DNA of 64,000 nucleotides from Escherichia phage vB_EcoM_3HA11, in sequence record MN342150; one strand, 5' to 3'. A program made the position numbers and the translations under genes. This document shows positions 2,309 to 52,621 of this stretch, one piece after another. Each line of letters opens with the position of its first letter. Position 1 is the first letter of the stretch. The notes below the pieces were generated by a model, which was given only the letters and a program-made list of their open reading frames with translations, had not been told where the DNA came from and did not search any database.

Positions 2309-5074
2309 ATGACCAGAAATGTAGAAGAATTATTCGGCGGCGTAATCACAGCTCCCCACCAGATTCCTTTCACGTATAAATCAAATGTCGGTGGAGAAAC
2401 TTTCCTTTCCTTGCCGTTCTATCCTGTCACTGGCGTAGTCACAATTAACGGCGGCATGCAAGTTCCGTTAGACAACTTCGAGATAGACGGGAATACGTTG
2501 AATCTCGGGCGCGCATTGTCCAAAGGCGATGTTGTGTATTGCTTATTCGATAAAATTCTTTCACCAGAAGACACTGCCAAAGGCATCCGCATATACAAAT
2601 TTCAAGCCGTGGGTGGAGAAACTGAATTCACGCCTGACTTTACTTCTTATGGTGTACAGTCTCTTTATATCGGTGGCGAGTACAAAACTCCTGATATAGA
2701 ATATTCGTACAACAGTACGACTGGGAAAGTGTCTTTGCAAACTGCATTGACTGCAGGCGTTTGGGTAGTCGCTGAAATCTCTGTTAAACAACCGAATATC
2801 AGTCCGGCGTTTGACCGCAGTATTCAAGAAATTGCCCGTTCTGCTAATGTGAAAGACTCTGAAGTCATCGTTAGTACGGACACCATATCTTTGTTGGATG
2901 GGAAGAAAGTTGTTTATGACATAGCGGCACAAACCAGTTATGGTTTACCAACCATTCCTGATGGTTCTGTCATTTCTACGATCTCAGACGGGAAATTGAA
3001 TTACAACCCAGGTGATGTGCAGGTTGATTTGTTGCCTTTAGAAGATTCATTTATTAATGTGATAAACACTCTGGGGCGCAATGATGGTGCCAAGTATATC
3101 GGAGAATGCCATTCTGTTGCTGATCTCAGGAATACTGAACCCACTATGGATGGACAACGCATTATTCTTAAGCAACACACTGCGGGTACTCTTCTTGGTG
3201 GAGGGGTATTCCGTGCGTTAATTGATGGTACAGGAAAGACTGATGATAACGGTACTGTGATCAAAACTGTTGGCGGCGCAGCCTGGTTACGTGTTAATGC
3301 TGATAGAGTTAACCCATTCATGTTTGGTGCTTTGGGTGGTTCTAATGATGATACTATTCCAGTACAATCTTGTGTGGACAGTGGTAAGGCCACACAATTA
3401 ACTGGTATACATTACGTTAGCAATATCCAGTTAAAATATAATACGTCGTCTATTTATGGGTCTGGATTACATTACTCCAGGTTGCATCAGTTGCCTTCTG
3501 CTACTGGGAATTGTATTACCATAAAAGATACATGCTCCCTTATTGTATTAGACTCCTTTGGGGTATATGGCACAGGTGCACAACAAGGCACATCATTTAC
3601 TGCGGGTACAACAGGTATCTATATAGAAACTCCTTCAGGTCTCTCAGCCGATTATCCGTTCCACACTACCGCAGACCCAAGACGCGACTTGTGTATTTCT
3701 AAGGTCCATATAGCAGGTTTTGATGAATATGGGTTAAATATTGATAGTGGTAACTTTAGTGTTACTACAGATTCTCTTTTAGTCAACCACATCAATCAGG
3801 TGGGCGTCCGTTGTGCTACTACTGATTGGACTTGGACAAATATCCAGGTTAATACCTGCGGTAAACAATGTCTGGTTCTTGATGGTTGTGGTAATGGTCG
3901 TATTATTGGTGGTAAATTCATTTGGGCTAACTGGCAACCTTATGGTACAGTAGGACAGTTCCCAGGCATTACTATTAATAATAGCCAGAATATGGTTATT
4001 AATGGTATTGAGGTACAAGATTGTGGCGGGAATGGCATTGAGATTAGCGATTCATATTCAATTTCCATGAACGGATTGAACACCAATCGTAACGGCATCA
4101 ACGCTAACAACACTTTCTACAACATCGTATTTAACAAAAGTGATGCAGTTATCAACGGATTCGTAGGACTCAATTATGCCGCGAATAGTGGTTCAGGTGC
4201 TAACTCTAGTGCGGGCAATTTTCAGTTCCTGTCTAATGATTGCAGCGTCACCATTAATGGTGTGGTTGAGACTGGTTATATGGGCATTAACTTTATTGGT
4301 GATAACAATATTATCAACCCCACAAATTCCGACCTGAGCATTAACGGATTGGTTAATTATTCCAAGACTGGTTTGCAAACCATGAACGAGACCCCTACAT
4401 TTGATGGTGTTAGCACTACACCTGTTTATGTAAGTGTCCCATCTTCTGTAGGGCAAGTAAATGGTCTGAGACTATCACAAGCCAACAAAGATAAATTACT
4501 GTACTCAAGAACAGCAGGTCCAGAAGGTATTACCATGGCTGCTGTTGTAGTACCTACCATATCTGGAGCTGAAGTATTTAACTTCATGGCCATTGGTTCA
4601 GGGTTTAGTGATACATCCAACAGTCTTCATCTTCAATTAGTTATAGACGCTTCCGGAAAACAAACAATTGCTTTGCTATTGGGGGGCGATGGTACAACCC
4701 AAATTTTATCTGGGGATTTACCTAACGACCTTAAACTACAAAGTGGTGTGCCATATCATATAGCTATTGGTGCTAAACCTGGATATTTCTGGTGGAGTAT
4801 TCTTAATATTCAGACGGGTAAGAGAATCAGACGGTCATTCCGAGGCGCTTATTTAGCTGTACCATTTAATTCTATATTCGGATTAACTTCTTCATTAACA
4901 TTCTTCTCGGATAGCAATGCTGGTGGGGATGCCTGTTCTGGTGTAGGTGCTAAAGTGTATGTTGGTATGTTCTCTTCTGAGAATGATTATGTAGCTTCAC
5001 GGTACTACAACCTGATTAATCCTGTAGACCCTAATAAGTTAATTAGTTACCGTATATTGGATTCTTCTATTTAA
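2309..5074 (+). CDS. Tailspike / tail fibre protein 2 with parallel beta-helix-like repeats
   Basis: 921 aa counted from the ATG at 2309 (ORF track opens at 2294; start chosen by analogy with the first cassette copy where the ATG inside the hairpin is not the start); Gly/Asn-rich repetitive segments (..VINGIEVQDCGGNGIEISD..NGLNTNRNGINANN..) typical of pectate-lyase-like beta-helices. Confidence 0.55.
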   Translation: MTRNVEELFGGVITAPHQIPFTYKSNVGGETFLSLPFYPVTGVVTINGGMQVPLDNFEIDGNTLNLGRALSKGDVVYCLFDKILSPEDTAKGIRIYKFQAVGGETEFTPDFTSYGVQSLYIGGEYKTPDIEYSYNSTTGKVSLQTALTAGVWVVAEISVKQPNISPAFDRSIQEIARSANVKDSEVIVSTDTISLLDGKKVVYDIAAQTSYGLPTIPDGSVISTISDGKLNYNPGDVQVDLLPLEDSFINVINTLGRNDGAKYIGECHSVADLRNTEPTMDGQRIILKQHTAGTLLGGGVFRALIDGTGKTDDNGTVIKTVGGAAWLRVNADRVNPFMFGALGGSNDDTIPVQSCVDSGKATQLTGIHYVSNIQLKYNTSSIYGSGLHYSRLHQLPSATGNCITIKDTCSLIVLDSFGVYGTGAQQGTSFTAGTTGIYIETPSGLSADYPFHTTADPRRDLCISKVHIAGFDEYGLNIDSGNFSVTTDSLLVNHINQVGVRCATTDWTWTNIQVNTCGKQCLVLDGCGNGRIIGGKFIWANWQPYGTVGQFPGITINNSQNMVINGIEVQDCGGNGIEISDSYSISMNGLNTNRNGINANNTFYNIVFNKSDAVINGFVGLNYAANSGSGANSSAGNFQFLSNDCSVTINGVVETGYMGINFIGDNNIINPTNSDLSINGLVNYSKTGLQTMNETPTFDGVSTTPVYVSVPSSVGQVNGLRLSQANKDKLLYSRTAGPEGITMAAVVVPTISGAEVFNFMAIGSGFSDTSNSLHLQLVIDASGKQTIALLLGGDGTTQILSGDLPNDLKLQSGVPYHIAIGAKPGYFWWSILNIQTGKRIRRSFRGAYLAVPFNSIFGLTSSLTFFSDSNAGGDACSGVGAKVYVGMFSSENDYVASRYYNLINPVDPNKLISYRILDSSI

Positions 5075-5082
5075 AAATATAC

Positions 5083-5100
5083 CCCTCTTCGGAGGGTATT
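5083..5100 (+). terminator. Terminator-like hairpin (ccctc-ttcg-gaggg) after tailspike 2
   Basis: 5-bp stem with ttcg tetraloop followed by tatttac; weak T-tract. Confidence 0.3.
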
Positions 5101-5128
5101 TACTAGAGAAAAACAGGAGATTCTTATT

Positions 5129-7363
5129 ATGAATCCGCAATTTGCTCAACCAAAAGGTTCTACTTCAAAAGAATCGAACAAAGACAGTATTGCTCGTAAA
5201 TTTGGGTGTAAAAAGTCGGAAGTCGTTTATGCGAAATCAGGACAGTCCTTGTCTGGATATAAGGTTATTTATGACAAGGAAACACAGAGAGCGTATTCCT
5301 TGCCTGTAGATATTCCAGCAGGAACCACGGCTATTAGCCTTAGCGCCAGTGCTCTGCTTGTACACTCTGGGGGTTCTGTAGACCTGGGCGAACTAGCTTC
5401 CCAACGCAATGAATATAATGTATTACCTGGTTCTTTTACTACTGGTGCAATAGTATCCACAAAGAATGATGTACTTACCCACAATGGTATCCAGTATCGT
5501 TGGAATGGTTCATTACCTAAAGTTGTACCTCAGAACTCTTTACCATCCAGTGATGATAATTGGATTGGCTTGGGTGCTTCTTATCTGAAGGAACAGCTTA
5601 ACAGTACCAGTGGTGCATCCATGGTAGTACTGGCTAATGGCAAAACCATTGAAGAAGAATTTGCCGAAGAAGCTGCATGGCAGAACCAAGAGAATATGGT
5701 GAGAACCGTTATTCCTAATGTTTATCACCATATCCGTGGCGTTCAGCGTCACTCTGGTAAAAACTTAGCATGGTCTGCTCCAGACGTTGCTATTGATAAA
5801 CTTAACCCTACGGATACCGTCTTCTACCGTATGCCCCAGATTGTTAAAACTGGTGATGGTACTCTGATGATTTTCTGTAATGAGTTGCATGGTAACAATA
5901 CAGATATTGGTGCTACTCCAGATCAGCAATGTAATATCGTTATGAAATACTCCATTGATAATGGGTGGTCTTGGTCGGCTAAGGTAGTGGTAGCTAACTT
6001 TGGGGCTACGTATCAGAACGGTGAGATTGCTGCTGTGTATAACCCAGTAGATGGTCGGGTATACTGTTACTTTACTTCCTGCAAAGGCCAGTTGGGTTGG
6101 GGATACTCACAGCCAGGCAATGACCCTAATACATCATCCCAGATATATGTTACCTACTGTGATGCGGAAGCTCCTACTATATGGCGTACACCAGCTAACA
6201 TTACTGCTACCCTTAAGCCAGCAACGGCAGATTTTATCTGGACTTCACCAACTAAACCAGTTGTTTTACCGGATGGTAAGATGGCAATGATTGTGTCTAC
6301 CGTCACTGGTTCACGGGTTGATTCTTTCCTTACCATCATGAAGTATGACATTAAGTACAGCATGGACTACGTACTTAGTTCCGAAGAATCTGGTGGGGAA
6401 GTCGGACTGAACCTTTTGCCGGATGGTCGTATGGTGATGAACTCTCGTGCTTACCACACCACAGACCTTAAAGGGCTTCAGAAATTCTATATCAGTGATC
6501 ATCAGTTTAAGAACTGGCAGCACTTATCTGATTTAGTTACATCGGATAGTAAGGGTGACCTGGTTCCTATTTTTGATGGGGTTAATGGTGTTCTTACTTG
6601 GGCGTTTACTTGTGCTAATGGTGTAGGTGATAATTCTATTGGTCGTACTAACTACCGAGTATGGATTAGTCGTGACCTAGTTACTTGGGGGTTAGCTCCT
6701 ACTGGGGATATCAACACAAGTGATTCTGTTGGGTACATCGCATCAATGCCTGGTGGTGATGATGGTTATGTAATCTCTACATCTGAATCAGGTGGTTTTG
6801 GTGGTATTTGGTTTACTCAATGGAATGCTAAGTATATCCAGAACAGAAACTACAACCGCTATCACAAAGAGTTGCGAGAATTAGAGTCAGTAGATGAAAC
6901 AGCAATGCTCGCATCCGGCGCTATTCCTAACTACTCTTTTTACGTAAACAAAGACTCCAACCTAATTAACTTCAACCGCAACGGTACTCCAGTTAAGATT
7001 CAGCAATTGGGGGTTAGTCAGAATGCTGTTGATAAGTACACTACAACTCAGACCCTAGCATCTATTCCTGTAGATGGTGTTGATATTGTATTAGTCACTG
7101 GTTCCGGTATTACTCTTACCCTTAGTGGGTTTAGCGGTGGATATATGGGCCAGCGTGTGACAGTTATCTCTGATTCATCTGGTGGTGGGGTAGTGCTTAA
7201 ACGTGCTGATACAACATTGCCTACTGTAACGGACAGATTCCACTTTAATGTGGCAGGAGCCTTTACTGCTTTGAGGGTAGACTATGCAACTAAGATGATG
7301 GTTACTTTAGTTAAGACTCCATCTGGTTGGTTCACGGAAAGTATTGCTAACGTAACAATCTAA
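5129..7363 (+). CDS. Tailspike protein 3 with sialidase-like (Asp-box) domain
   Basis: 744 aa; N-terminus homologous to ORF 97..2193; Asp-box-like motifs SIDNGWSW and SRDLVTW as in BNR/sialidase beta-propellers. Confidence 0.55.
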   Translation: MNPQFAQPKGSTSKESNKDSIARKFGCKKSEVVYAKSGQSLSGYKVIYDKETQRAYSLPVDIPAGTTAISLSASALLVHSGGSVDLGELASQRNEYNVLPGSFTTGAIVSTKNDVLTHNGIQYRWNGSLPKVVPQNSLPSSDDNWIGLGASYLKEQLNSTSGASMVVLANGKTIEEEFAEEAAWQNQENMVRTVIPNVYHHIRGVQRHSGKNLAWSAPDVAIDKLNPTDTVFYRMPQIVKTGDGTLMIFCNELHGNNTDIGATPDQQCNIVMKYSIDNGWSWSAKVVVANFGATYQNGEIAAVYNPVDGRVYCYFTSCKGQLGWGYSQPGNDPNTSSQIYVTYCDAEAPTIWRTPANITATLKPATADFIWTSPTKPVVLPDGKMAMIVSTVTGSRVDSFLTIMKYDIKYSMDYVLSSEESGGEVGLNLLPDGRMVMNSRAYHTTDLKGLQKFYISDHQFKNWQHLSDLVTSDSKGDLVPIFDGVNGVLTWAFTCANGVGDNSIGRTNYRVWISRDLVTWGLAPTGDINTSDSVGYIASMPGGDDGYVISTSESGGFGGIWFTQWNAKYIQNRNYNRYHKELRELESVDETAMLASGAIPNYSFYVNKDSNLINFNRNGTPVKIQQLGVSQNAVDKYTTTQTLASIPVDGVDIVLVTGSGITLTLSGFSGGYMGQRVTVISDSSGGGVVLKRADTTLPTVTDRFHFNVAGAFTALRVDYATKMMVTLVKTPSGWFTESIANVTI

Positions 7364-7370
7364 AATACAA

Positions 7371-7396
7371 GCCCCCAATAAGGGGGCTTTCTTTTG
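7371..7396 (+). terminator. Rho-independent terminator (gccccc-aataa-gggggc + tttcttttg)
   Basis: Perfect 6-bp GC stem followed by T-tract, 8 nt after stop of tailspike 3. Confidence 0.7.
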
Positions 7397-7487
7397 CTAT
7401 GTCTCGTTAACCTGACAGGAACTGGAAGTTCAAAACTATCAGGTGGAGGAACTGGGTTTTTATTTCTATCTGTTTGTTGGCTGTATA

Positions 7488-7495
7488 CTAAATAT
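7488..7495 (+). promoter_or_regulatory. Late-promoter-like box CTAAATAT
   Basis: 33 nt upstream of the ATG at 7528. Confidence 0.4.
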
Positions 7496-7527
7496 CTCTA
7501 TAAAATGGCACTAGATGGAGCATCAAA

Positions 7528-10500
7528 ATGCAATCTACAAATTTAAACCGTCGCCCGTATTGGGATGACTGGAATCCTGGGAAACGTTTTTCACGGATTC
7601 TTTTTCGTCCGATGCCTATCAAGGTTCAGACTCGCGAACTGAACCAGATGCAGACTATTCTTCAGGATCAAATTGAAAAACTGGGCAACCATCTGTTCAA
7701 AGATGGTTCTATGGTTATCCCTGGCGGTCTGACGATCACCAATGCCGCAGTCTCTTTGAAATTCACTTTGGCGGGTGGTACTGAATTCACCGATCTGGAA
7801 GGTATTTCTGAACTCTACGTTTTGGGGAAAGACAATAACGCCAAAGCGCGTGTGTTGTCTCTTGAACGTGATCTGTCTGCTCCTGATACGATGTTGGCCA
7901 TCCTTGAGATGACTGAAGCGGGTAATGCTGACGGATTCCATGTTAACGATAATCTGTATTTCCAGACTTACGACGTGAATGATAATTTCATTCGTATTGG
8001 TTATGGGATCGCGGCTGCTGTAACTGGTTCTATCGTTGCTCGTATGACGAAAGGCGTTTACTTCATTCGTGGAATGTTTCTAGACGTTGATGACGCGACT
8101 CTCATCGTCGATAAAACTTCAAACACTTCTTCCCACCGTGTCGGATTTAAAGTCACTGAAACCATCGTGACTGAATCTGAAGACGAATCCCTTTATTCAA
8201 ATGCTCAGGGAACGATTAACTCCAAAGCCCCAGGCGCTCATCGTCTTCGAATAGATCTGGTTTTGTCTCGATTTGATTATGATGCTGTGGTTGAAGACTT
8301 TGTTGAACTGGCCAAAGTTCGTGATGGTAAAATCCAGTCTATGGTGACTCAGTCCACCTATAATATTCTGGAAGACACGTTGGCTCAACGGACGTATGAA
8401 ACCAACGGCGATTACAACGTTTCAACGCATCAGATCGACATCCGCGAACACCTGAAAGTCAATAACAATGGTGGTGTATTCAATGCTGCTGATGGCGGCG
8501 ACGAAAGTAAATTCGTGTCTGTAATGAAACCAGGTATTTCCTATGTTCGCGGTCGTCGTATCGAAAACGTCGGGGAAGAGTTGGTGATCGTTGACAAGGC
8601 ACGGGATACCGATGTCCTGAATAACACGCCTGTTGCAGTCGCTACAGGGAATTATCTGGTCACCAAGAACTCCAAAGGTGTTCCAGTAATATCTCGCACT
8701 GTGCGATACAAGTTATTGAACGCGTCCGGCGCTGCTCAAGCCACGGCGTTGTGTATATCCGCTGAACGCAATTCAACTGAATTCCGTCTGTACATGCGTG
8801 ATTTGGTTGTGACTGGGGACGCGTCCACTATCACCAAAGTATCTTATGAAGAAAGTGGTATCACCATGTTCTCTGCTGAACTGGAATCCAACCAGTTTAA
8901 CCAGAGTTCTATGGTAGACCTGATCTTCTCTCTTCCGGTCTTCGGTGTTAAAACATTAGCGCCAACAGGTTCCGTGGATATCAACTACACCGTTCTCCGA
9001 ACTTACAAAGTCACTCTGGACAATAGCGGTTCTGGTTCTATTTCAGCCCCACTGGGATATAGTTTCTCTCCTGAATTTTCGTTGTATTCTTCTGCGAAAT
9101 CCGATGGTTCAGAAGCGCAATTTGATATCTCTGGCTCTTTGTCACTGACTGGTTCTCCGGTGGGATCGGCTTTGCAGATTTCCCTGGGTAGCGGTAATGC
9201 TAACCAGTCAATCAATTTGCTGGCACTGATGATCCGCACTACGGCCACGATCAAAACGAAGACGATAACTGAAACCACAGAGTCTGTGACTTTTACTTCC
9301 CAAACCAGTAGACCTCTGGCAAATCACGATGGCTGGAAATTGGTATCTGTCAAAAATGATACCGGCGCGGACGTGACTTCGAGCTTCACCCTCGACGGTG
9401 GTCAACGCGATGCGGGATATTACAAGGCTAATCTGTTATCCACCGCTGGAGCCATTTCAGGGACGTATACGGTGGTGTATCAATACTTCGCGCATAGTTC
9501 GGGAGATTTCTTCTCAGCGGATTCGTATACTTCGATGGATTATAAAGATATCCCGAATTATACATCTTCTACATCAGGCGCGGTGTACGGCCTGGCAGAT
9601 AGTTTAGATTTCCGTCCGAAAATCACCAACGGAACTTCTGACACAGATATGGTTCGTCCAAACACTGCAGTTATTCTGGACACAGAATATTATCTGCCGC
9701 GTATCGACGCGATTTATCTGGCAGACAACGGTGTGTTTGGTGTGGCTCGAGGCATCAGTTCTAATAATCTGGCTTCTCCAGCAATCCCAGCGAACGCCAT
9801 GCGTTTGTATGAATTGTTGATCCCGCCGTATACACCGAATATTGATGATATCCAAATTCGAACTATTGATAATCGTCGTTATACAATGCGCGATATCGGT
9901 AAACTGGAAACCCGTATTTCCAATGTTGAATACTATACCTCTCTGTCACAGCTGGAATCTTCAGCGATGACACAGCAAGTGTTTGACCCCATCACGGGTA
10001 ATCCTCGTTTCAAAAATGGTATTGCAGCTGATCCGTTCAAAGACTTCCGGTTGATTGATGACTTGTCTGAAGATTGGATGGGTTCTATCGATACCGAAAA
10101 CGGACGTCTACGCCCGTTTGTACAACAGAACGTTGTTGACATGACTCCGGTTGGCTGGAACAAAGTGATGGATGGGATGGTGGTTTGTAATTACACACCT
10201 GAAATCTCAGTGAACCAAGAATATGCGACGACGACGATCAACGTTAACCCGTATGCAGTATTCAATTGGGAAGGTTTCTTGAAGATTAACCCGACCACAG
10301 ACTACTGGTTCGAAAACTATTATGTTGCCCCGCGTATTATTAATGAAACGATCAACACCCGTGGTACTGTACAAGAAGGTTCAGTGTACGGAACATGGCG
10401 GACTGTTTCTGTTTCTGATCGTGTTTGGGAGCCGCATGGTGCTGGTGGTGTGTGGTGGGGATATCGTTACCGCACGACTGTTTCTGCCCGTGATGTCACC

Positions 10501-39751: not shown

Positions 39752-40975
39752 ATGAAAGATAAACCGTGTGACATTCCTTATTGCGGTGTTCGGGAAGCTA
39801 AAATTAAATCTGCACATCCCATGTTAAGCCCATTCCATAAACAACTCGCATACGAATGGATGAGCGAGCGCTATAAGATCCACGTGAGAAAGGACGTCCA
39901 GCGTCTTCCTGCTCCTTGGACGGATAATCCCATACTACGGCAGGTCAAGTTCTGTAACGTCCGGAGAGAGCACGACAGGCAGTCTCTTAACCTGATCAAT
40001 AATATTGTCAAGAACGATGCTCTGGGCATGGCAGACAAGATGTTCAACTGCGTGTTGTTCCGCATGTTCAACCTCTGGGATCCTATCAAGGCTATCGGCG
40101 GTGCTCGCACGATCAAAGAGTTCGCAAACATCGATCTTGATGTAACCCGCAATCAACTTCAGGAATTTGAGGCCAATGGTGGTAAAGTGTTCACCAATGC
40201 ATTCAACACAGGCGGTCTAAAACAATGTCTGGCGTTCCCTGAACTTGTTGTCAACCACAAGGAGCAGCGCTTCGGTGGGATGATGGTTAAGGTACACCGT
40301 GTTGGCCAGGGTGTCGTGGATGAATTGGATTACAAGGTCGCCAAGAAGCTGGTTGAAGAGAATCCTGGGGAGTACACGATTGAGGGTTGGGAGCCGTACA
40401 TGCCAATGCGTGTCATCCGCTCTTTGAAGGCATTCGTCAACAAGTACCCCGATTACTTCAATGATCTTTTACGTCTTGACTCTCCGCTGAAAGTTTACCA
40501 GCGCATGTATGACGACATTGAAGGGCTTGGGCCATTCCTGGCATATCAGATCTGGGTGGACTTCACATACATCCCTGAGTATCCATTCAGTGAGAATCAT
40601 TTCACTATTGCTGGTCCAGGTTGCCGTGCGGGTATTGACCTGATGTTCCTGGATAAGGACGGCATGACTCATGAAGAATGCATCTTCTGGATTCGAGATC
40701 ACCAGTATCAAATGTTTGCTCAGTATGGTTATGTCCGAGAGCAGTTCTGGTCAGCCGAAGCGCCGGAAGATCAGTGCATGAACGTCATGCAGCTGGAGAA
40801 CATGTTCTGTGAATTGAGCAAGTACACCCGCTGTGTTGAGGCCATCGAGAGAGGAGAAAAGCCACGCGGCAAGGTCGGTTATGATGGAGGCGGGGAATAC
40901 AAAAAGCGATGCGATGAAGTTGTCCTCAATCGCGGATCGGTCAATTTGTTAGATCGTTTGAAGAAACCTGAATAA
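39752..40975 (+). CDS. HhH-GPD (DNA glycosylase-like) superfamily protein with Cys cluster
   Basis: Helix-hairpin-helix IEGLGPFLAYQI followed ~25 aa later by Gly/Pro loop and Asp (TIAGPGCRAGID); four C-terminal Cys (C-x10-C-x7-C-x25-C) possibly a metal/Fe-S site. Confidence 0.4.
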   Translation: MKDKPCDIPYCGVREAKIKSAHPMLSPFHKQLAYEWMSERYKIHVRKDVQRLPAPWTDNPILRQVKFCNVRREHDRQSLNLINNIVKNDALGMADKMFNCVLFRMFNLWDPIKAIGGARTIKEFANIDLDVTRNQLQEFEANGGKVFTNAFNTGGLKQCLAFPELVVNHKEQRFGGMMVKVHRVGQGVVDELDYKVAKKLVEENPGEYTIEGWEPYMPMRVIRSLKAFVNKYPDYFNDLLRLDSPLKVYQRMYDDIEGLGPFLAYQIWVDFTYIPEYPFSENHFTIAGPGCRAGIDLMFLDKDGMTHEECIFWIRDHQYQMFAQYGYVREQFWSAEAPEDQCMNVMQLENMFCELSKYTRCVEAIERGEKPRGKVGYDGGGEYKKRCDEVVLNRGSVNLLDRLKKPE

Positions 40976-44225: not shown

Positions 44226-44448
44226 AAAATTATCTCAGGTAATGACCGACTGCAACCGCCGGAATTATTGTGATGAAGCGTATACCAAATTGAAAACTGC
44301 TGTTGAAACCGAGCTGGCAGGTCTTTCCGTTTTCAAAGATATTCAGACCGAAGTGCTATATCTGTCGGATGAAGATTTAAGGCGTTGCCCCCGCAAGATT
44401 TACCAATTACTGGATCGTTTGGTGAAAGTGGGGGTGAATAATGGGTAA
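44197..44448 (+). CDS. Hypothetical protein
   Basis: 83-aa ORF. Confidence 0.3.
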   Translation: MSKEIQEAFEKLSQVMTDCNRRNYCDEAYTKLKTAVETELAGLSVFKDIQTEVLYLSDEDLRRCPRKIYQLLDRLVKVGVNNG

Positions 44449-45166
44449 TCGTGAAGGGATTAAACTCACACCAGAACTTCTGAAGTCACATATTGCTGAA
44501 GTGATTTATGAAGACCGTGAAGTTGGTGGTCACCGCGTCATTACATGCCATTTCAAGATGGACAATGGGTTCGTTGTGTGGGGTAAGAATAGTTCCACAT
44601 CGGTAGACCCTGCCAACTTCGATGAAGAAATAGGCAAGCAGCTGGCCTATGAAAAGACCCTTTCTCAACTGTGGGAACTGGAAGCATATCGCGCGATGGT
44701 AGAAAAGCAGATCATCGATGTGTCTGCCGAAGATGCTAAGATCAACATTGATGAATATGTGTCAGAAAGGGAAGCGATACATGAGATGGGTGGTTCTGAA
44801 TTTCTTAAGGGTAAAGGACAATCCATCGTGTTTCGTCATCCCAAAGATCCAAGTCGGGGATTTCGCGTTGAATTTGTTCGCACCGATAATGAACGTTATA
44901 ACGAACGACGCAATGGTGAGGCACGATCTTTGGTGGAAGCGTATCTTCGCTCGTTCATGACTTCTGAAGAACTAAATTCTGAACTTGTCTTGCGTTTGGC
45001 GAAAACGTGTAATGCTGCTTCAGGGGATTATCCGTGGTGTGACCTGTCAGAAGACAAACGCCAAGCAGCCTGTGATCGTGTTAAGAAATTCTTGTTAGAT
45101 CCGAAAGCCCAACCTGGTGATTCCGTAGGGGCACTGTATAGAGCCATTGTGGTGTCCTACTTGTAA
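44441..45166 (+). CDS. Hypothetical protein
   Basis: 241-aa ORF. Confidence 0.4.
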   Translation: MGNREGIKLTPELLKSHIAEVIYEDREVGGHRVITCHFKMDNGFVVWGKNSSTSVDPANFDEEIGKQLAYEKTLSQLWELEAYRAMVEKQIIDVSAEDAKINIDEYVSEREAIHEMGGSEFLKGKGQSIVFRHPKDPSRGFRVEFVRTDNERYNERRNGEARSLVEAYLRSFMTSEELNSELVLRLAKTCNAASGDYPWCDLSEDKRQAACDRVKKFLLDPKAQPGDSVGALYRAIVVSYL

Positions 45167-45433: not shown

Positions 45434-47650
45434 ATGATTGAATCATTAACATTTAAAAATGCGGTAGCAACCGTCGCGCCGTCTAACCATGTAATCGTTG
45501 TGGATATCTCCGGTTCCATGTACCGTTCACTTCCTGAAGTTCGCAAGCATCTGAAGGAAAATCTCCCGTCTCTGGTTAAACCAGAAGATACCGTCAGCAT
45601 TCTTTACTTTTCATCCCGTGGTGATTTCGGTACGGTATTCGCTGGCCGTCAGATCAATAGCGCGACCGATCTCAGTGAAATCAATAAACTGATTGACCGC
45701 TTCCTGCAACCGTCCGGTTGTACGGGATTTGTAGAACCTCTGAAGTTGGCTGCTGAAACCGCGTTGAGCCTGAACAAACCTGGTTATGTCAATAACCTGG
45801 CGTTCATGACCGACGGCTATGACAACTGCTGGCGCTCTAATGAAATTCTGGCAGCAGCTGAAGTACTGCCCAAGGCGTTCGATAATATTACATTCATCGA
45901 ATATGGCTGGTACTGTAACCGCGAACTTCTGGCCCTGATGTCCGAGCGTTCTGGCGCGACTCACGTGTTTGCCGAAGGTCAGACTGAATATCAGACCGAA
46001 CTGGAAAACGTACTGAAATCATCTACGCCGAAAGTGGTTGTTGATGTTCCCCTGGTTTACACTCATGCCATCTACGTTGAAAACGGCGTGGCAACTGTGC
46101 TAGCCGTACAACCAGATGAAGAACACCCGATTGGCCACGTCAGCATCCCTGAAAGCGTTTCTCAGCTGTGGGTTGTAAACCCCGACATGATCGACCAGCT
46201 GGATAATCTGGCAGACACCCAGGCGGCATACGTGCTGGCATTCTATGGCGTGTACACCATGGACGCCGATCTGGTCTGGGCCGCGCTGAAGAAGACGGGT
46301 GACGTCCGCTTCATCAAACAATACAGCAACTGTTTCACCAAGCAGGACTATTCCAACATCAAAGTCGATCTGACCCAGGCTATCGTGGATGAAACTCTGC
46401 GCGGCGTAGATGGCATCGATTACAATATGGTTCCAGCTGAAGATGCAACAACCATTGTTGATGTCTTGACCTACCTGGCCGAAGCCGATGTCTCTGTTGT
46501 CACTAAGCATCCACTGTTCTCTTACAACAGTATTGGGCGCGGTACTGTACAGAAAGTTGACGACACCGAAGACAAATTGGCCGAAGAGATTGCGAATGCG
46601 ACTTCTAAAGAAGAGCGTAAAGCCCTGGCGCTCAAACTGGCCGAGCACGAAGATTGGACGCCGGAATTTACTCCGGTTGATGACAAAGGGATTGTCCCAA
46701 TTAGCAATCTGGTCTATAATTCAGAACGTCCTAACATCAGTGTACAAACAGTTCAACACGGAACGGTTGTTGTACCCGAGTTCGTACAGAAGAAATATGA
46801 ACTTCCTGAAGAGTTGGGAACCTGGCGTTATCGCAATTACACCATTGTCAAGGATGGTATCATCAACCTGAAAACAATGCCTATTACTGCGGATTCTCCG
46901 ATTGTTCGGGCTAAGGTGGCACAGGATTTGACTGCCATGGGTGTTCATGTGTTTGGTGGACCGGAAGTCTTCATTGTAAATCTGGAAAGTGTCCCAATGG
47001 TTAACCGCGCTATGACAAAGAATATCAGTGCTGCTGAATTCTTTGCAGACAATGTGCGCCGTGAAGCATTGAAGGCGAAACAAAAAGTTCTGAAATTCTA
47101 TCGTGATGAGCTGGTTGGTAAAGGCAATGCTGCTGGTTTGGCTTCAAAATATGGCAAAGAAGCGGCTGATTTCCTGTCAGCAAACGGCATTCGCGACTAT
47201 GGATTTTCACCGAAGACTTCTTCTGTAGAATCAACTGATGTCTATATGAGTCGTGAATTGAATGTGAAAATCAAAGGCGCATCTTCACTGCCGAGCATCG
47301 CGTCTGTTATCAAAAAACAGACGGACGGTAAAAAACTGAATGTCGCTGATCAGCTGATCGCTAATGCCCTGGCTGAATACAATGCATTCGTTAAATCACC
47401 GATGATCACCAGCGTACCGGAAGAGACTCAGAAAAAGCTGATCGAAAGTTGGATTGGTGATGCAGCAAAAGCAGCTATCAACGAAGTTCGCGCTCTGAAC
47501 AAAACGCTGTCCAAGGTAGTTTATGGGATTGTTGCAGGCCATGGTTGGTTTACCGACCTGGATTTGGAAGAATCCACTATGGATGTGGAAGTTGATGGGG
47601 TGAAATACACCGTCACTGCCGAACTGGCCGAAAAAGAAGTCAAAATCTAA
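45434..47650 (+). CDS. von Willebrand factor A (vWA) domain protein with MIDAS motif
   Basis: N-terminal VIVVDISGSMY (DxSxS) followed by hydrophobic strands typical of vWA; 738 aa from ATG after AAGAAGG. Confidence 0.6.
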   Translation: MIESLTFKNAVATVAPSNHVIVVDISGSMYRSLPEVRKHLKENLPSLVKPEDTVSILYFSSRGDFGTVFAGRQINSATDLSEINKLIDRFLQPSGCTGFVEPLKLAAETALSLNKPGYVNNLAFMTDGYDNCWRSNEILAAAEVLPKAFDNITFIEYGWYCNRELLALMSERSGATHVFAEGQTEYQTELENVLKSSTPKVVVDVPLVYTHAIYVENGVATVLAVQPDEEHPIGHVSIPESVSQLWVVNPDMIDQLDNLADTQAAYVLAFYGVYTMDADLVWAALKKTGDVRFIKQYSNCFTKQDYSNIKVDLTQAIVDETLRGVDGIDYNMVPAEDATTIVDVLTYLAEADVSVVTKHPLFSYNSIGRGTVQKVDDTEDKLAEEIANATSKEERKALALKLAEHEDWTPEFTPVDDKGIVPISNLVYNSERPNISVQTVQHGTVVVPEFVQKKYELPEELGTWRYRNYTIVKDGIINLKTMPITADSPIVRAKVAQDLTAMGVHVFGGPEVFIVNLESVPMVNRAMTKNISAAEFFADNVRREALKAKQKVLKFYRDELVGKGNAAGLASKYGKEAADFLSANGIRDYGFSPKTSSVESTDVYMSRELNVKIKGASSLPSIASVIKKQTDGKKLNVADQLIANALAEYNAFVKSPMITSVPEETQKKLIESWIGDAAKAAINEVRALNKTLSKVVYGIVAGHGWFTDLDLEESTMDVEVDGVKYTVTAELAEKEVKI

Positions 47651-47693
47651 ATTCATCTGGCGGGGAAACCCGCCTTCATTTTGAGATATGCTT

Positions 47694-48005
47694 ATGTCAA
47701 ACAAACCAACTTATGTTGAAGTAATGCGTGTTCTGGCTCAGTACGCTTGTGACAACCTGAACATGGAAACTTGGCGCGACGGTGACCATAAAGAAAAGTT
47801 CGATAATATCGACGACAACATCGATGCGTTGGCTCCTCTTCGGGCCAAGAGCGATCTCGGCGGTGATGATCTTGACATGATTGAACTCATCATGGAAGTT
47901 GAAGAACAATATGATGTTGAAATCAGTGATGAATGGGTAGGCAAACATGGTGATGATCCCACGCTCGGCGAATTAGCTGAATTGGTAGTTGCCCTCCGCA
48001 AATAG
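47694..48005 (+). CDS. Acyl-carrier-protein-like protein lacking the phosphopantetheinyl Ser
   Basis: DLGGDDLDMIELIMEVEEQYDVEISDE aligns with E. coli ACP [27 protein letters not shown], but the conserved Ser of DSL is Asp. Confidence 0.5.
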   Translation: MSNKPTYVEVMRVLAQYACDNLNMETWRDGDHKEKFDNIDDNIDALAPLRAKSDLGGDDLDMIELIMEVEEQYDVEISDEWVGKHGDDPTLGELAELVVALRK

Positions 48006-48012
48006 CAGAAGT

Positions 48013-48045
48013 CCCCAACGGTTTGTTGGGGATTTTTACTTTTAG
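48013..48045 (+). terminator. Rho-independent terminator (ccccaac-ggttt-gttgggg + atttttactttt)
   Basis: Perfect 7-bp stem with T-tract, 8 nt after ACP-like gene stop. Confidence 0.65.
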
Positions 48046-48048
48046 GGG

Positions 48049-48078
48049 GTTTACTTGAATAAACATTTGCCGTATTAT
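48049..48078 (+). promoter_or_regulatory. Sigma70-type early-promoter candidate (-35 GTTTAC, 18-bp spacer, -10 TATTAT)
   Basis: Same GTTTAC -35-like element as at 29008; 54 nt upstream of the ATG at 48132. Confidence 0.35.
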
Positions 48079-52023: not shown

Positions 52024-52311
52024 ATGTCCGGCGTATGGTGTGATGTATTATTAGTGAGATTTTCAAACGGGATGGATAATCAGATCATTTCATTCTTTTA
52101 TCCTGTCCCTTTTTCTTCGATGGGCCTGACCGTCAAGCGCGTTCTTGACATAGAAGAAAAACTCAACGCCATGCCGTATATGGCGCGACCACACGTGCTG
52201 GGTTGTGAACTGTTAAACGAAATGATGATCGATGAGAATCTTGTTGAAACAATTATCACGCGTGAACAGATGAAAACCATACTGGCTCAGGGAGAACCCC
52301 ATGTCGAATAA
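52024..52311 (+). CDS. Hypothetical protein
   Basis: 95-aa ORF. Confidence 0.3.
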   Translation: MSGVWCDVLLVRFSNGMDNQIISFFYPVPFSSMGLTVKRVLDIEEKLNAMPYMARPHVLGCELLNEMMIDENLVETIITREQMKTILAQGEPHVE

Positions 52312-52621
52312 ACCGTTTGAACTTAAATTTCGCGTTTGGCATATTCCCCAGGTTCCTGGGATCGCTTTTCATGTTGAGGTTCCAACATTTGAAGAAGCGC
52401 AGCGCCTGAAGAATGCTCTGGGCGATTATGATTTGTTCCAGTTCAACAACAATATCAAGCCGGATTATTGCAATGCTTCGGGCATTCAGATTTATCAACA
52501 TGATCTGACCGATGATGATCTTAATGATATGGGTCTGGATGATCGTTGGGTTGATATGGAAGATGTTGACGAACTTAACGATTATTTCGAGCATCTGCGC
52601 AGTACAGGGTGGGAAATATGA
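52301..52621 (+). CDS. Hypothetical highly acidic protein
   Basis: C-terminal DDDLNDMGLDDRWVDMEDVDELNDYFE. Confidence 0.35.
   Translation: MSNKPFELKFRVWHIPQVPGIAFHVEVPTFEEAQRLKNALGDYDLFQFNNNIKPDYCNASGIQIYQHDLTDDDLNDMGLDDRWVDMEDVDELNDYFEHLRSTGWEI

Follow-up and report, generated by a model that had tools for sequence, protein, structure and literature searches.

What could a phage do with an acyl carrier protein (ACP) that has lost the serine on which acyl carriage depends? The question is raised by a gene of Escherichia phage vB_EcoM_3HA11, located in a 64,000-nucleotide stretch of sequence record MN342150 that was analysed as a whole and is referred to here as the window. The window is a genome segment of a Kuttervirus (Vi01-like, Ackermannviridae). 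Salmonella phages SJ2, Mooltan, and Vi01 share 94-95% identity with the 4 kb around the gene. Matches were obtained in 261 phage records, where the corresponding open reading frame (ORF) is usually labelled 'acyl carrier protein', or else 'acpP' or 'phosphopantetheine attachment site protein'. The gene product has an aspartate, Asp59, opposite the phosphopantetheinylated Ser36 of E. coli ACP. Loss of this serine with acidic replacement is family-wide and recurrent, and is a clear molecular oddity with a testable mechanism. By analogy with inhibitory apo-ACP, we tentatively propose, with a probability of roughly 35%, a non-acylatable mimic of ACP, which would dock on the ACP-binding sites of host enzymes as a dead-end competitor. 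A survey of the published literature found neither a functional study of the phage protein nor any mention of the missing serine.

Fold and homology of the ACP-like protein

The ORF runs from an ATG at 47694 to a TAG stop at 48003-48005, exactly the limits given by an earlier reading made from the DNA alone (the sequence-only reading). An in-frame ATG is also present at 47688. Since the Shine-Dalgarno sequence GAGA at 47683-47686 is suitably spaced for 47694, and the ACP-like proteins of other genera begin at the MS.KPTY residue, 47694 is preferred and 47688 is an unlikely start. The protein is 103 residues long and strongly acidic, with a pI of 4.16, 26 Asp and Glu residues versus 10 Lys and Arg residues, and a net charge of approximately -16.

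Profile searches place the protein with the ACPs. It matches the Pfam PP-binding family (PF00550) with E=5.7e-7 and 30.1 bits, against a gathering cut-off of 20.8, and PHROG 4154, 'acyl carrier protein', with E=8e-56. A phmmer search of the PDB returned ACPs only, headed by Bacillus subtilis ACP (E=2e-7), in which DLGADSLD lies opposite DLGGDDLD of the phage protein. Residues 54-80 (DLGGDDLDMIELIMEVEEQYDVEISDE) align without gaps to residues 31-57 of E. coli ACP with 16 of 27 positions identical, bearing out the suggestion of the sequence-only reading that the core matches E. coli ACP helix II.

The AF2 model, built with 25 homologues, has a mean pLDDT of 86.8 and a pTM of 0.81. Its helices, assigned by DSSP at residues 7-21, 59-73, 79-84, and 91-101, follow the ACP topology, and its enlarged loop I contains extra short helices. 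When the model was compared with the PDB using Foldseek, the top 50 matches were all ACPs, with target-normalised TM scores of 0.52-0.79 (best approximately 0.75-0.79). Comparison with viral structures (BFVD) returned the ViI orthologue and other phage 'ACPs'. The four-helix fold was a point on which the sequence-only reading had said that it could fail, and a bundle of this kind is what the model predicts. With a significant profile match and a predicted four-helix bundle, the protein is a fold-level member of the ACP/PP-binding superfamily.

Two segments distinguish the protein from canonical ACPs. The loop I insertion is its most variable part, with pLDDT values in blocks of 73-77 and short helices at 25-46. 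The second segment, W-x-G-x3-G-D-D-P-T, is three residues longer than the corresponding region of E. coli ACP, and its W81, G83, D87, D88, P89, and T90 are invariant within Ackermannviridae. Distant relatives without the serine share the motif, as do some relatives that have it. We take this region, which follows helix III, to flank the site at which the prosthetic arm emerges in ACP structures.

Scores against the AcpP equivalog models are far below their cut-offs (TIGR00517, 34.3 bits versus 70.45; NF002148, 33.9 versus 71). Because the top PDB matches are Bacillus ACPs and the protein reaches 34 bits against an equivalog cut-off of 70, its likeness to E. coli ACP is generic ACP conservation and not host-specific mimicry. 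Recent copying of the host AcpP was also considered as an origin and was rejected, the closest matches being Bacillus or generic ACPs and the score lying under the equivalog cut-off.

Loss of the attachment serine

In the model, Asp59 is the first residue of helix II, as is Ser36 in ACP. All 37 close homologues are encoded in Ackermannviridae-type genomes, and each of the 25 aligned Ackermannviridae proteins has Asp or Glu at position 59, within the motif D-L-G-G-D-[D/E]-L-D. The same holds for every one of the more distant relatives (P0038-P0046 and P0048; 32-49% identity), which were recovered by an exhaustive profile search of 1.8 billion representatives. Codons at position 59 in all related loci fetched are GAT, GAC, GAA, or GAG, and no others. 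The remaining serines of the window protein (S2, S53, and S78) are not conserved. A tblastn search with E. coli AcpS found no phosphopantetheinyl transferase in Ackermannviridae. The genes around the ACP-like coding sequence encode vWA, gp49-like, Zn-finger, HMUDK, helicase, and Band_7 proteins, and none belongs to fatty-acid metabolism.

The sequence-only reading had named the persistence of serine in related phages as a possible refutation; down to 32% identity, no homologue retains it. Its two central claims, that Ser is replaced by Asp and that the protein cannot carry a prosthetic group, both held, the latter being well supported by the alignments: the defining serine was looked for and is absent, so the family is almost certainly not one of functional carriers. 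Given Asp or Glu in every homologue and no other conserved serine, the GenBank label 'acyl carrier protein' appears to be misleading and functionally wrong.

Selection on the docking face and on residue 59

Pairwise comparison within the family gave a median ratio of non-synonymous to synonymous substitution rates (dN/dS) of 0.08 over the 41 pairs with usable dS, indicating purifying selection on a gene that is real and constrained. Among its neighbours it nonetheless diverges fastest. The ACP-like proteins of the window and of the distant relatives L023 and L029 are 32-41% identical, compared with 72-76% for the vWA protein encoded upstream and 60-86% for most neighbours; a second Salmonella phage lineage (CRW-SP2, P0041) shows approximately 42% identity to the window protein. 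Accessory genes with a role in host interaction typically diverge this fast.

The acidic docking residues of helices II and III are kept while the remaining protein drifts. Positions fixed within Ackermannviridae include R50, K52, L55-G56-G57-D58, L60, D61, I63, E64, and M67, followed by E70, E71, V75, I77, D79, W81, G83, and D87-D88-P89-T90. When all Ser-less phage relatives are considered, invariance is confined to D58, L60, E64, M67, and E70, and D61 and D79 are nearly invariant. D58, D61, E64, E70, E71, and D79 respectively correspond to D35, D38, E41, E47, E48, and D56 of E. coli ACP, and L60 and M67 to the ACP core residues L37 and M44. In E. coli ACP, the substitutions D35N and D38N abolish IscS binding (PMC13343975).

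To place the replacement among viral ACP homologues in general, IMG/VR was scanned with three matched patterns, in which the position was fixed as Ser, fixed as Asp or Glu, or left open (DxLD[LVM][VI]E[LMI]xM). The Ser-fixed scan matched 353 stretches, of which 251 were confirmed, and the Asp/Glu-fixed scan matched 68, of which 16 were confirmed. The best 80 loci of the open scan held 61 distinct homologues, with Ser in 56, Glu in three, Asp in one, and Ala in one. Approximately 8% of the viral ACP homologues in this sample therefore lack the serine, and the replacement is acidic in four of these five, a small number. No Ser codon can be turned into one for Asp or Glu by fewer than two nucleotide changes, and these residues are two of the nineteen alternatives to Ser. 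Taken with the excess of acidic residues among the five, this points to a replacement that was selected and not accidental, within the limits of such small numbers. The carboxylate could be a phosphate mimic, a ligand for a metal or a basic residue, or a favourable residue in the first turn of the helix.

Serine-less look-alikes in other genomes

ACP look-alikes with Asp or Glu in place of Ser stand alone in unrelated phages, including other metagenomic ones. The cleanest example is a 78-residue protein (P0220) on a 133-kb T4-like contig (L043 6001-6237 / L045 5001-5234), with Glu at the Ser36 position in the motif DLHADELD. Its score of 100.6 bits exceeds the NCBIfam AcpP subfamily cut-off; apart from the lost attachment site, it is a nearly canonical copy of AcpP. 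Another look-alike (P0054/L024) is found in a phage with ThyX and HNH genes, and approximately 14 further IMG/VR contigs of 19-363 kb encode proteins of this type. One 288-kb viral contig carries two tandem ACP-like ORFs (L052 4617-5183), at least one of which has Glu at the Ser position.

A further look-alike lies in a tight operon of an unrelated viral contig. IMG/VR contig UViG_3300032105_000035 (L021) encodes a 97-residue protein (5890-6183) with Asp at the Ser position, in the motif DLGADDLD. Its operon (4066-8249) comprises genes for a 5-hydroxymethyldeoxyuridine (5-hmdU) DNA kinase, a FkbM methyltransferase, the ACP-like protein, a radical SAM/SPASM enzyme, and a GT61 glycosyltransferase. 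The operon may encode a thymidine hypermodification pathway, not described before, in which an ACP-like component takes part.

All-against-all BLAST of the ORFs of 19 loci found no neighbour gene shared by the look-alikes outside Ackermannviridae synteny. The sole neighbour shared with a locus outside Ackermannviridae is a P22 gp17-like (PF17420) gene, which lies approximately 0.5 kb from the look-alike in L053 (5755-6021), an unrelated viral contig of 70 kb, and 4.3 kb downstream of the ACP-like gene in the window (52301-52621); this is probably a coincidence. For a stand-alone gene that keeps reappearing in different phages, a host target is an easier explanation than a partner encoded by the phage.

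Bacterial genomes also encode ACP-like proteins with Asp or Glu for Ser, many of them with N-terminal signal peptides and a lipobox-like Cys. Examples of this lipoprotein type are P0083, P0105, P0139, P0146, P0174, P0198, P0199, P0214, P0216, and P0221 (e.g. L044 6001-6483); the gene for P0216 adjoins an ArgJ gene on a 1.17-Mb contig. To judge from their signals, these proteins would be exported lipoproteins at work outside the cytoplasm, where phosphopantetheinylation and ACP clients are absent. A different relative, P0056 (L026 6932-8276 / L027 6293-7637), is a Ser-containing ACP with an ADDPT motif before helix IV. Its gene is translationally coupled to one encoding a fusion of DAHP synthase and chorismate mutase, and also present on the element are a Prok-Ub, E2, and ThiF (PRTRC-like) module, ParB genes, and a terminase gene.

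A putative mimic of host ACP

True ACPs dock via the acidic face of helices II and III on a basic patch of their client enzymes. In the mechanism proposed here, the phage protein would be made in the infected cell as the product of the last cistron of a non-structural operon. Through its helix II face it would then occupy the ACP-docking site of at least one ACP client, most probably an enzyme of host lipid metabolism, and compete there as a dead end, as unmodified apo-ACP does toward PlsB in E. coli. The carboxylate of residue 59 sits where holo-ACP would have its phosphoserine. The fold, the lost serine and its acidic replacement under selection, the conserved docking helix, purifying selection, and independent recurrence are all shown by the analysis; client binding, the host origin of the client, and the inhibitory effect are the steps that we infer.

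The proposal is consistent with helix II conservation, with recurrence in unrelated phages, and with the toxicity of apo-ACP. In E. coli, apo-ACP inhibits the glycerol-3-phosphate acyltransferase PlsB more than holo-ACP does, and arrests growth (work of Keating and Cronan, reviewed in PMC3896788). A computational screen predicts contact between a phage ACP and host FabZ, which is a single and generic prediction (bioRxiv 10.64898/2026.03.01.708874). Of the interpretation offered by the sequence-only reading, the absence of a prosthetic group stood; its decoy for host enzymes survives as a conjecture of the kind set out above.

The nearest functional analogies are inhibitory apo-ACP and the Ser-less mitochondrial ACP (mACP) of Plasmodium. 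Like the phage protein, apo-ACP keeps the docking helix and lacks the prosthetic group, although it is a host protein, present in an abnormal state. In the phage protein the unmodifiable state is genetically fixed and phage-encoded, a carboxylate takes the place of the hydroxyl, and inhibition is putative. Plasmodium falciparum mACP is also Ser-less and binds Isd11-Nfs1 (PMC8547962). It too has lost its attachment serine and has been retained as a protein-binding module, but it is eukaryotic and organellar, and its partner is an LYR protein. The residue replacing its serine is reportedly hydrophobic, not acidic.

Comparison with other families sharpens these analogies. Bacterial AcpP (PF00550, TIGR00517) shares the four-helix bundle, the acidic pI, and the D-x-L-D...E...M...EE...I.D pattern. 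The phage protein differs in having Asp or Glu for Ser36, an insertion of approximately 25 residues in loop I, and the W-x-G-x3-GDDPT insertion, and in being encoded in a replication and accessory region without fatty-acid genes. Other phage ACPs (PHROG 5934; cyanophage, Caulobacter, Olleya, and Ralstonia phages) are likewise small stand-alone genes for ACP-fold proteins. Unlike the Ackermannviridae family and a minority with Asp or Glu, approximately 92% of the viral homologues sampled (56/61) keep the serine. Ocr, Arn, and Gp5.9 belong to a class of small, highly acidic phage proteins that mimic DNA; Gp5.9 and MukBEF feature in PMC7617805. The phage ACP-like protein resembles them in size, acidity, and possible imitation of a host macromolecule, but the folds are unrelated and it imitates at most a host protein cofactor carrier.

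Several observations weigh against this interpretation. The acidic replacement could be structural, Asp and Glu both being favourable where a helix makes its first turn. Within Ackermannviridae, the ACP-like gene is always found beside the vWA gene. Enterobacterial AcpP is no closer to the phage protein than are other ACPs, the top matches being Bacillus ACPs. The loop I insertion and the three-residue insertion before helix IV might block docking on some clients. SpoT and IscS, which are ACP partners outside fatty-acid synthesis, need the phosphopantetheine arm or Ser36 (PMC3896788, PMC13343975) and are therefore unlikely targets. Finally, host ACP makes up approximately 0.25% of soluble protein (PMC3896788), so a competitor would need high expression or a higher affinity.

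A broader version of the proposal is possible but doubtful. It holds that the Asp/Glu look-alikes form a recurrent and previously unrecognised class of phage host-takeover proteins, which would act as fixed mimics of host ACP and block docking sites on PlsB, Fab, or Lpx enzymes. The carboxylate may then mimic the phosphoserine of holo-ACP, and membrane synthesis would be shut down or redirected during infection. Such a class would have arisen independently in Ackermannviridae, in T4-like phages, and in other phages.

Alternative functions

The best of the alternatives, though an unlikely one, makes the protein a dedicated partner or subunit of another phage protein, most obviously the adjacent 738-residue vWA protein. 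In one variant, the carboxylate of Asp/Glu59 would complete metal coordination at the metal ion-dependent adhesion site (MIDAS) of the vWA domain, as acidic ligands do in integrin I domains. In another, the role of the ACP fold would be structural, like that of the ACP subunit in mitochondrial LYR-protein complexes, for which Ser-less Plasmodium mACP offers a precedent (PMC8547962). The MIDAS is intact, with D-x-S-x-S at D36/S38/S40 (numbered on a 750-residue reading) and T-D-G at 138-140, and these residues are invariant in the alignment. The replacement for serine is always a carboxylate and always the first residue of helix II, where such a ligand might be presented.

Gene order speaks for the same pairing. 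A small ORF, the vWA gene, and the ACP-like gene follow one another in 29 of the 29 loci examined, including four deeply divergent lineages, and the vWA and ACP-like genes are jointly absent from Aeromonas phage phiA8-29 (L142, 18756-47856; Ackermannviridae, Tedavirus). This phage keeps the kinase and replication genes and lacks the segment with the gp49-like, vWA, and ACP-like genes in the corresponding region near the kinase. Since the whole region is collinear across Ackermannviridae, however, adjacency is weak evidence. In a virion proteome, the vWA protein and the 'putative ACP' were each detected by one spectral count (PMC10892097); single counts show translation and little else.

The distribution of the two genes argues against an obligate pair. 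The vWA protein has homologues in T4-like phages of Slopekvirus and Pseudotevenvirus (48% identity), in Bacillus jumbo phage AR9 (25%), and in Rhizobium phages, and those of KP27 and Maroon (T4-like, 48%) and of AR9 have no ACP-like neighbour. One database record names a vWA homologue 'minor tail protein'. Conversely, full-length tblastn matches to the ACP-like protein occur only in Ackermannviridae-type phages, and the look-alikes of other phages have no vWA neighbour. The two proteins also evolve at very different rates over the same phage pairs (72-76% versus 32-41% identity), conservation of the vWA protein being unusually high, and a conserved hairpin separates their cistrons.

It is quite unlikely that the protein is a generic polyanion built on an inherited ACP scaffold, acting as a nucleic-acid mimic, an acidic chaperone, or a binder of divalent cations. 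The net charge and pI would suit such a role. Acidic clusters of ACPs, D35 and D38 among their residues, are sites of divalent-cation binding, and an additional carboxylate at position 36 would strengthen the cation site. The lipoprotein-type bacterial proteins with Asp or Glu for Ser suggest that an acidic, Ser-less ACP fold can have roles other than those of an ACP. Conservation in the phage family nevertheless falls on the helix II positions read by clients and not on overall charge, and the variable loop, which is acidic too, drifts freely. Against the PADLOC models, as a library of anti-phage defence and anti-defence components, the ACP-like protein had no match, and the vWA protein and three further Ser-less look-alikes from phages had none either.

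A highly improbable alternative is that the protein is an accessory of thymidine hypermodification, serving as a scaffold or carrier with the 5-hmdU DNA kinase pathway. The kinase gene of the window (39752-40975; PF18723, E=3e-82), as expected for a phage with 5-(2-aminoethoxy)methyl-2'-deoxyuridine (5-NeOmdU), lies 6.7 kb upstream, and the look-alike of L021 sits within a kinase operon. The 5-NeOmdU pathway of ViI, however, has been reconstituted in vitro from the kinase, an amino-acid:DNA transferase, and a pyridoxal phosphate-dependent decarboxylase alone (PMC8989533). L021 is the only such cluster, a pattern scan of kinase loci having reached only Ackermannviridae and this contig. Phage PhiW-14 has no ACP-like gene beside its kinase, and the other Ser-less look-alikes are not near genes of this kind. 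As a general explanation, hypermodification was rejected on the strength of the ViI reconstitution, PhiW-14, and the isolation of L021. A weak BFVD structural match to an 81-residue PhiW-14 protein (probability 0.63) was obtained, the gene for which was not located. Kinase homologues in PhiW-14 (L141 31347-32132) and Klebsiella phage FKP14 (PP974339.1) are labelled 'terminase small subunit', apparently through an annotation error that has been passed on.

That the protein is a functional ACP, as the PP-binding match and the database labels would have it, is scarcely credible, with the attachment serine absent in every member, no other serine conserved, a score under the AcpP equivalog cut-off, and no phosphopantetheinyl transferase homologue found by tblastn in Ackermannviridae phages.

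Genomic context

The ACP-like gene is the final cistron of a transcription unit that comprises a gp49-like gene, a small ORF, the vWA gene, and the ACP-like gene (Table 1). The sequence-only reading correctly placed a vWA gene directly upstream and a strong terminator downstream of the stop codon. The start codon of the vWA gene was taken from the annotation of Mooltan, in which the feature equivalent to the downstream hairpin is annotated as a terminator; this hairpin closes the transcription unit. A second hairpin, between the vWA and ACP-like genes, was absent from the earlier reading and is possibly a partial terminator or an RNA-stability element. Both hairpins occur at equivalent sites, with other stem sequences, in four divergent lineages (L022, L023, L028, and L029).

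Table 1. Features of the ACP-like gene and its transcription unit in the window.
Feature	Position	Strand	Evidence or remark
N4-gp49-like gene	44441-45166		Part of the transcription unit
ORF of 56 residues overlapping the vWA start codon	45271..45441	+	Same operon
vWA protein, 738 residues, N-terminal vWA domain	45434..47650	+	Pfam VWA E=8e-7, PHROG 2426
GC-rich hairpin GGCGGG-GAAA-CCCGCC with weak T tract	47659..47674	+	Between vWA stop and ACP-like start
Coding sequence, Ser-less protein of predicted ACP fold, 103 residues	47694..48005	+	ORF, PF00550, PHROG 4154, AF2 model, Foldseek, dN/dS
Loop I insertion, approximately 25 residues relative to canonical 77-residue ACPs; residues 22-52	47757..47849	+	Alignments
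End of loop I, helix II ('recognition helix', 59-73), and start of helix III; residues 54-80	47853..47933	+	Alignment, DSSP
Codon GAT, Asp59, opposite phosphopantetheinylated Ser36 of E. coli ACP	47868..47870	+	Alignment, model
Motif W-x-G-x3-G-D-D-P-T between helix III and helix IV; residues 81-90	47934..47963	+	Alignments
Intrinsic terminator-like hairpin CCCCAAC-GGTTT-GTTGGGG, then TTTTT	~48009..48037	+	RNAfold -21.7 kcal/mol

The small ORF that precedes the vWA gene has no family match, and an ORF of 53-70 residues is present at the corresponding site in L022, L023, L028, and L029. Small neighbouring ORFs in L024 and in the window likewise gave no Pfam match. After the terminator, at 48038-48060, lies a motif, TTTTAGGGG(N)TTTACTT, which is kept in L023, L028, and L029 despite diverged flanks and overlaps a promoter-like site of the next operon (48050-48078).

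Implications

The finding would correct a systematic misannotation, in that hundreds of GenBank records say 'acyl carrier protein' or 'phosphopantetheine attachment site protein'. Should the vWA protein prove to be the partner, the pair would be a rare case from a bacterial virus of an ACP fold re-used purely for binding, with Plasmodium mACP as the precedent. Should the protein instead be a fixed ACP mimic, it would represent a new phage route into host lipid metabolism, by imitation of the cofactor protein that all enzymes of the pathway bind, and its means would be neither an enzyme nor a DNA mimic. Such a protein would also offer an inhibitor scaffold, natural and tuned by evolution, for ACP-client interfaces, themselves antibacterial targets, and its action would explain the conservation of the gene in a phage family widely used for the biocontrol of Salmonella and E. 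coli O157.

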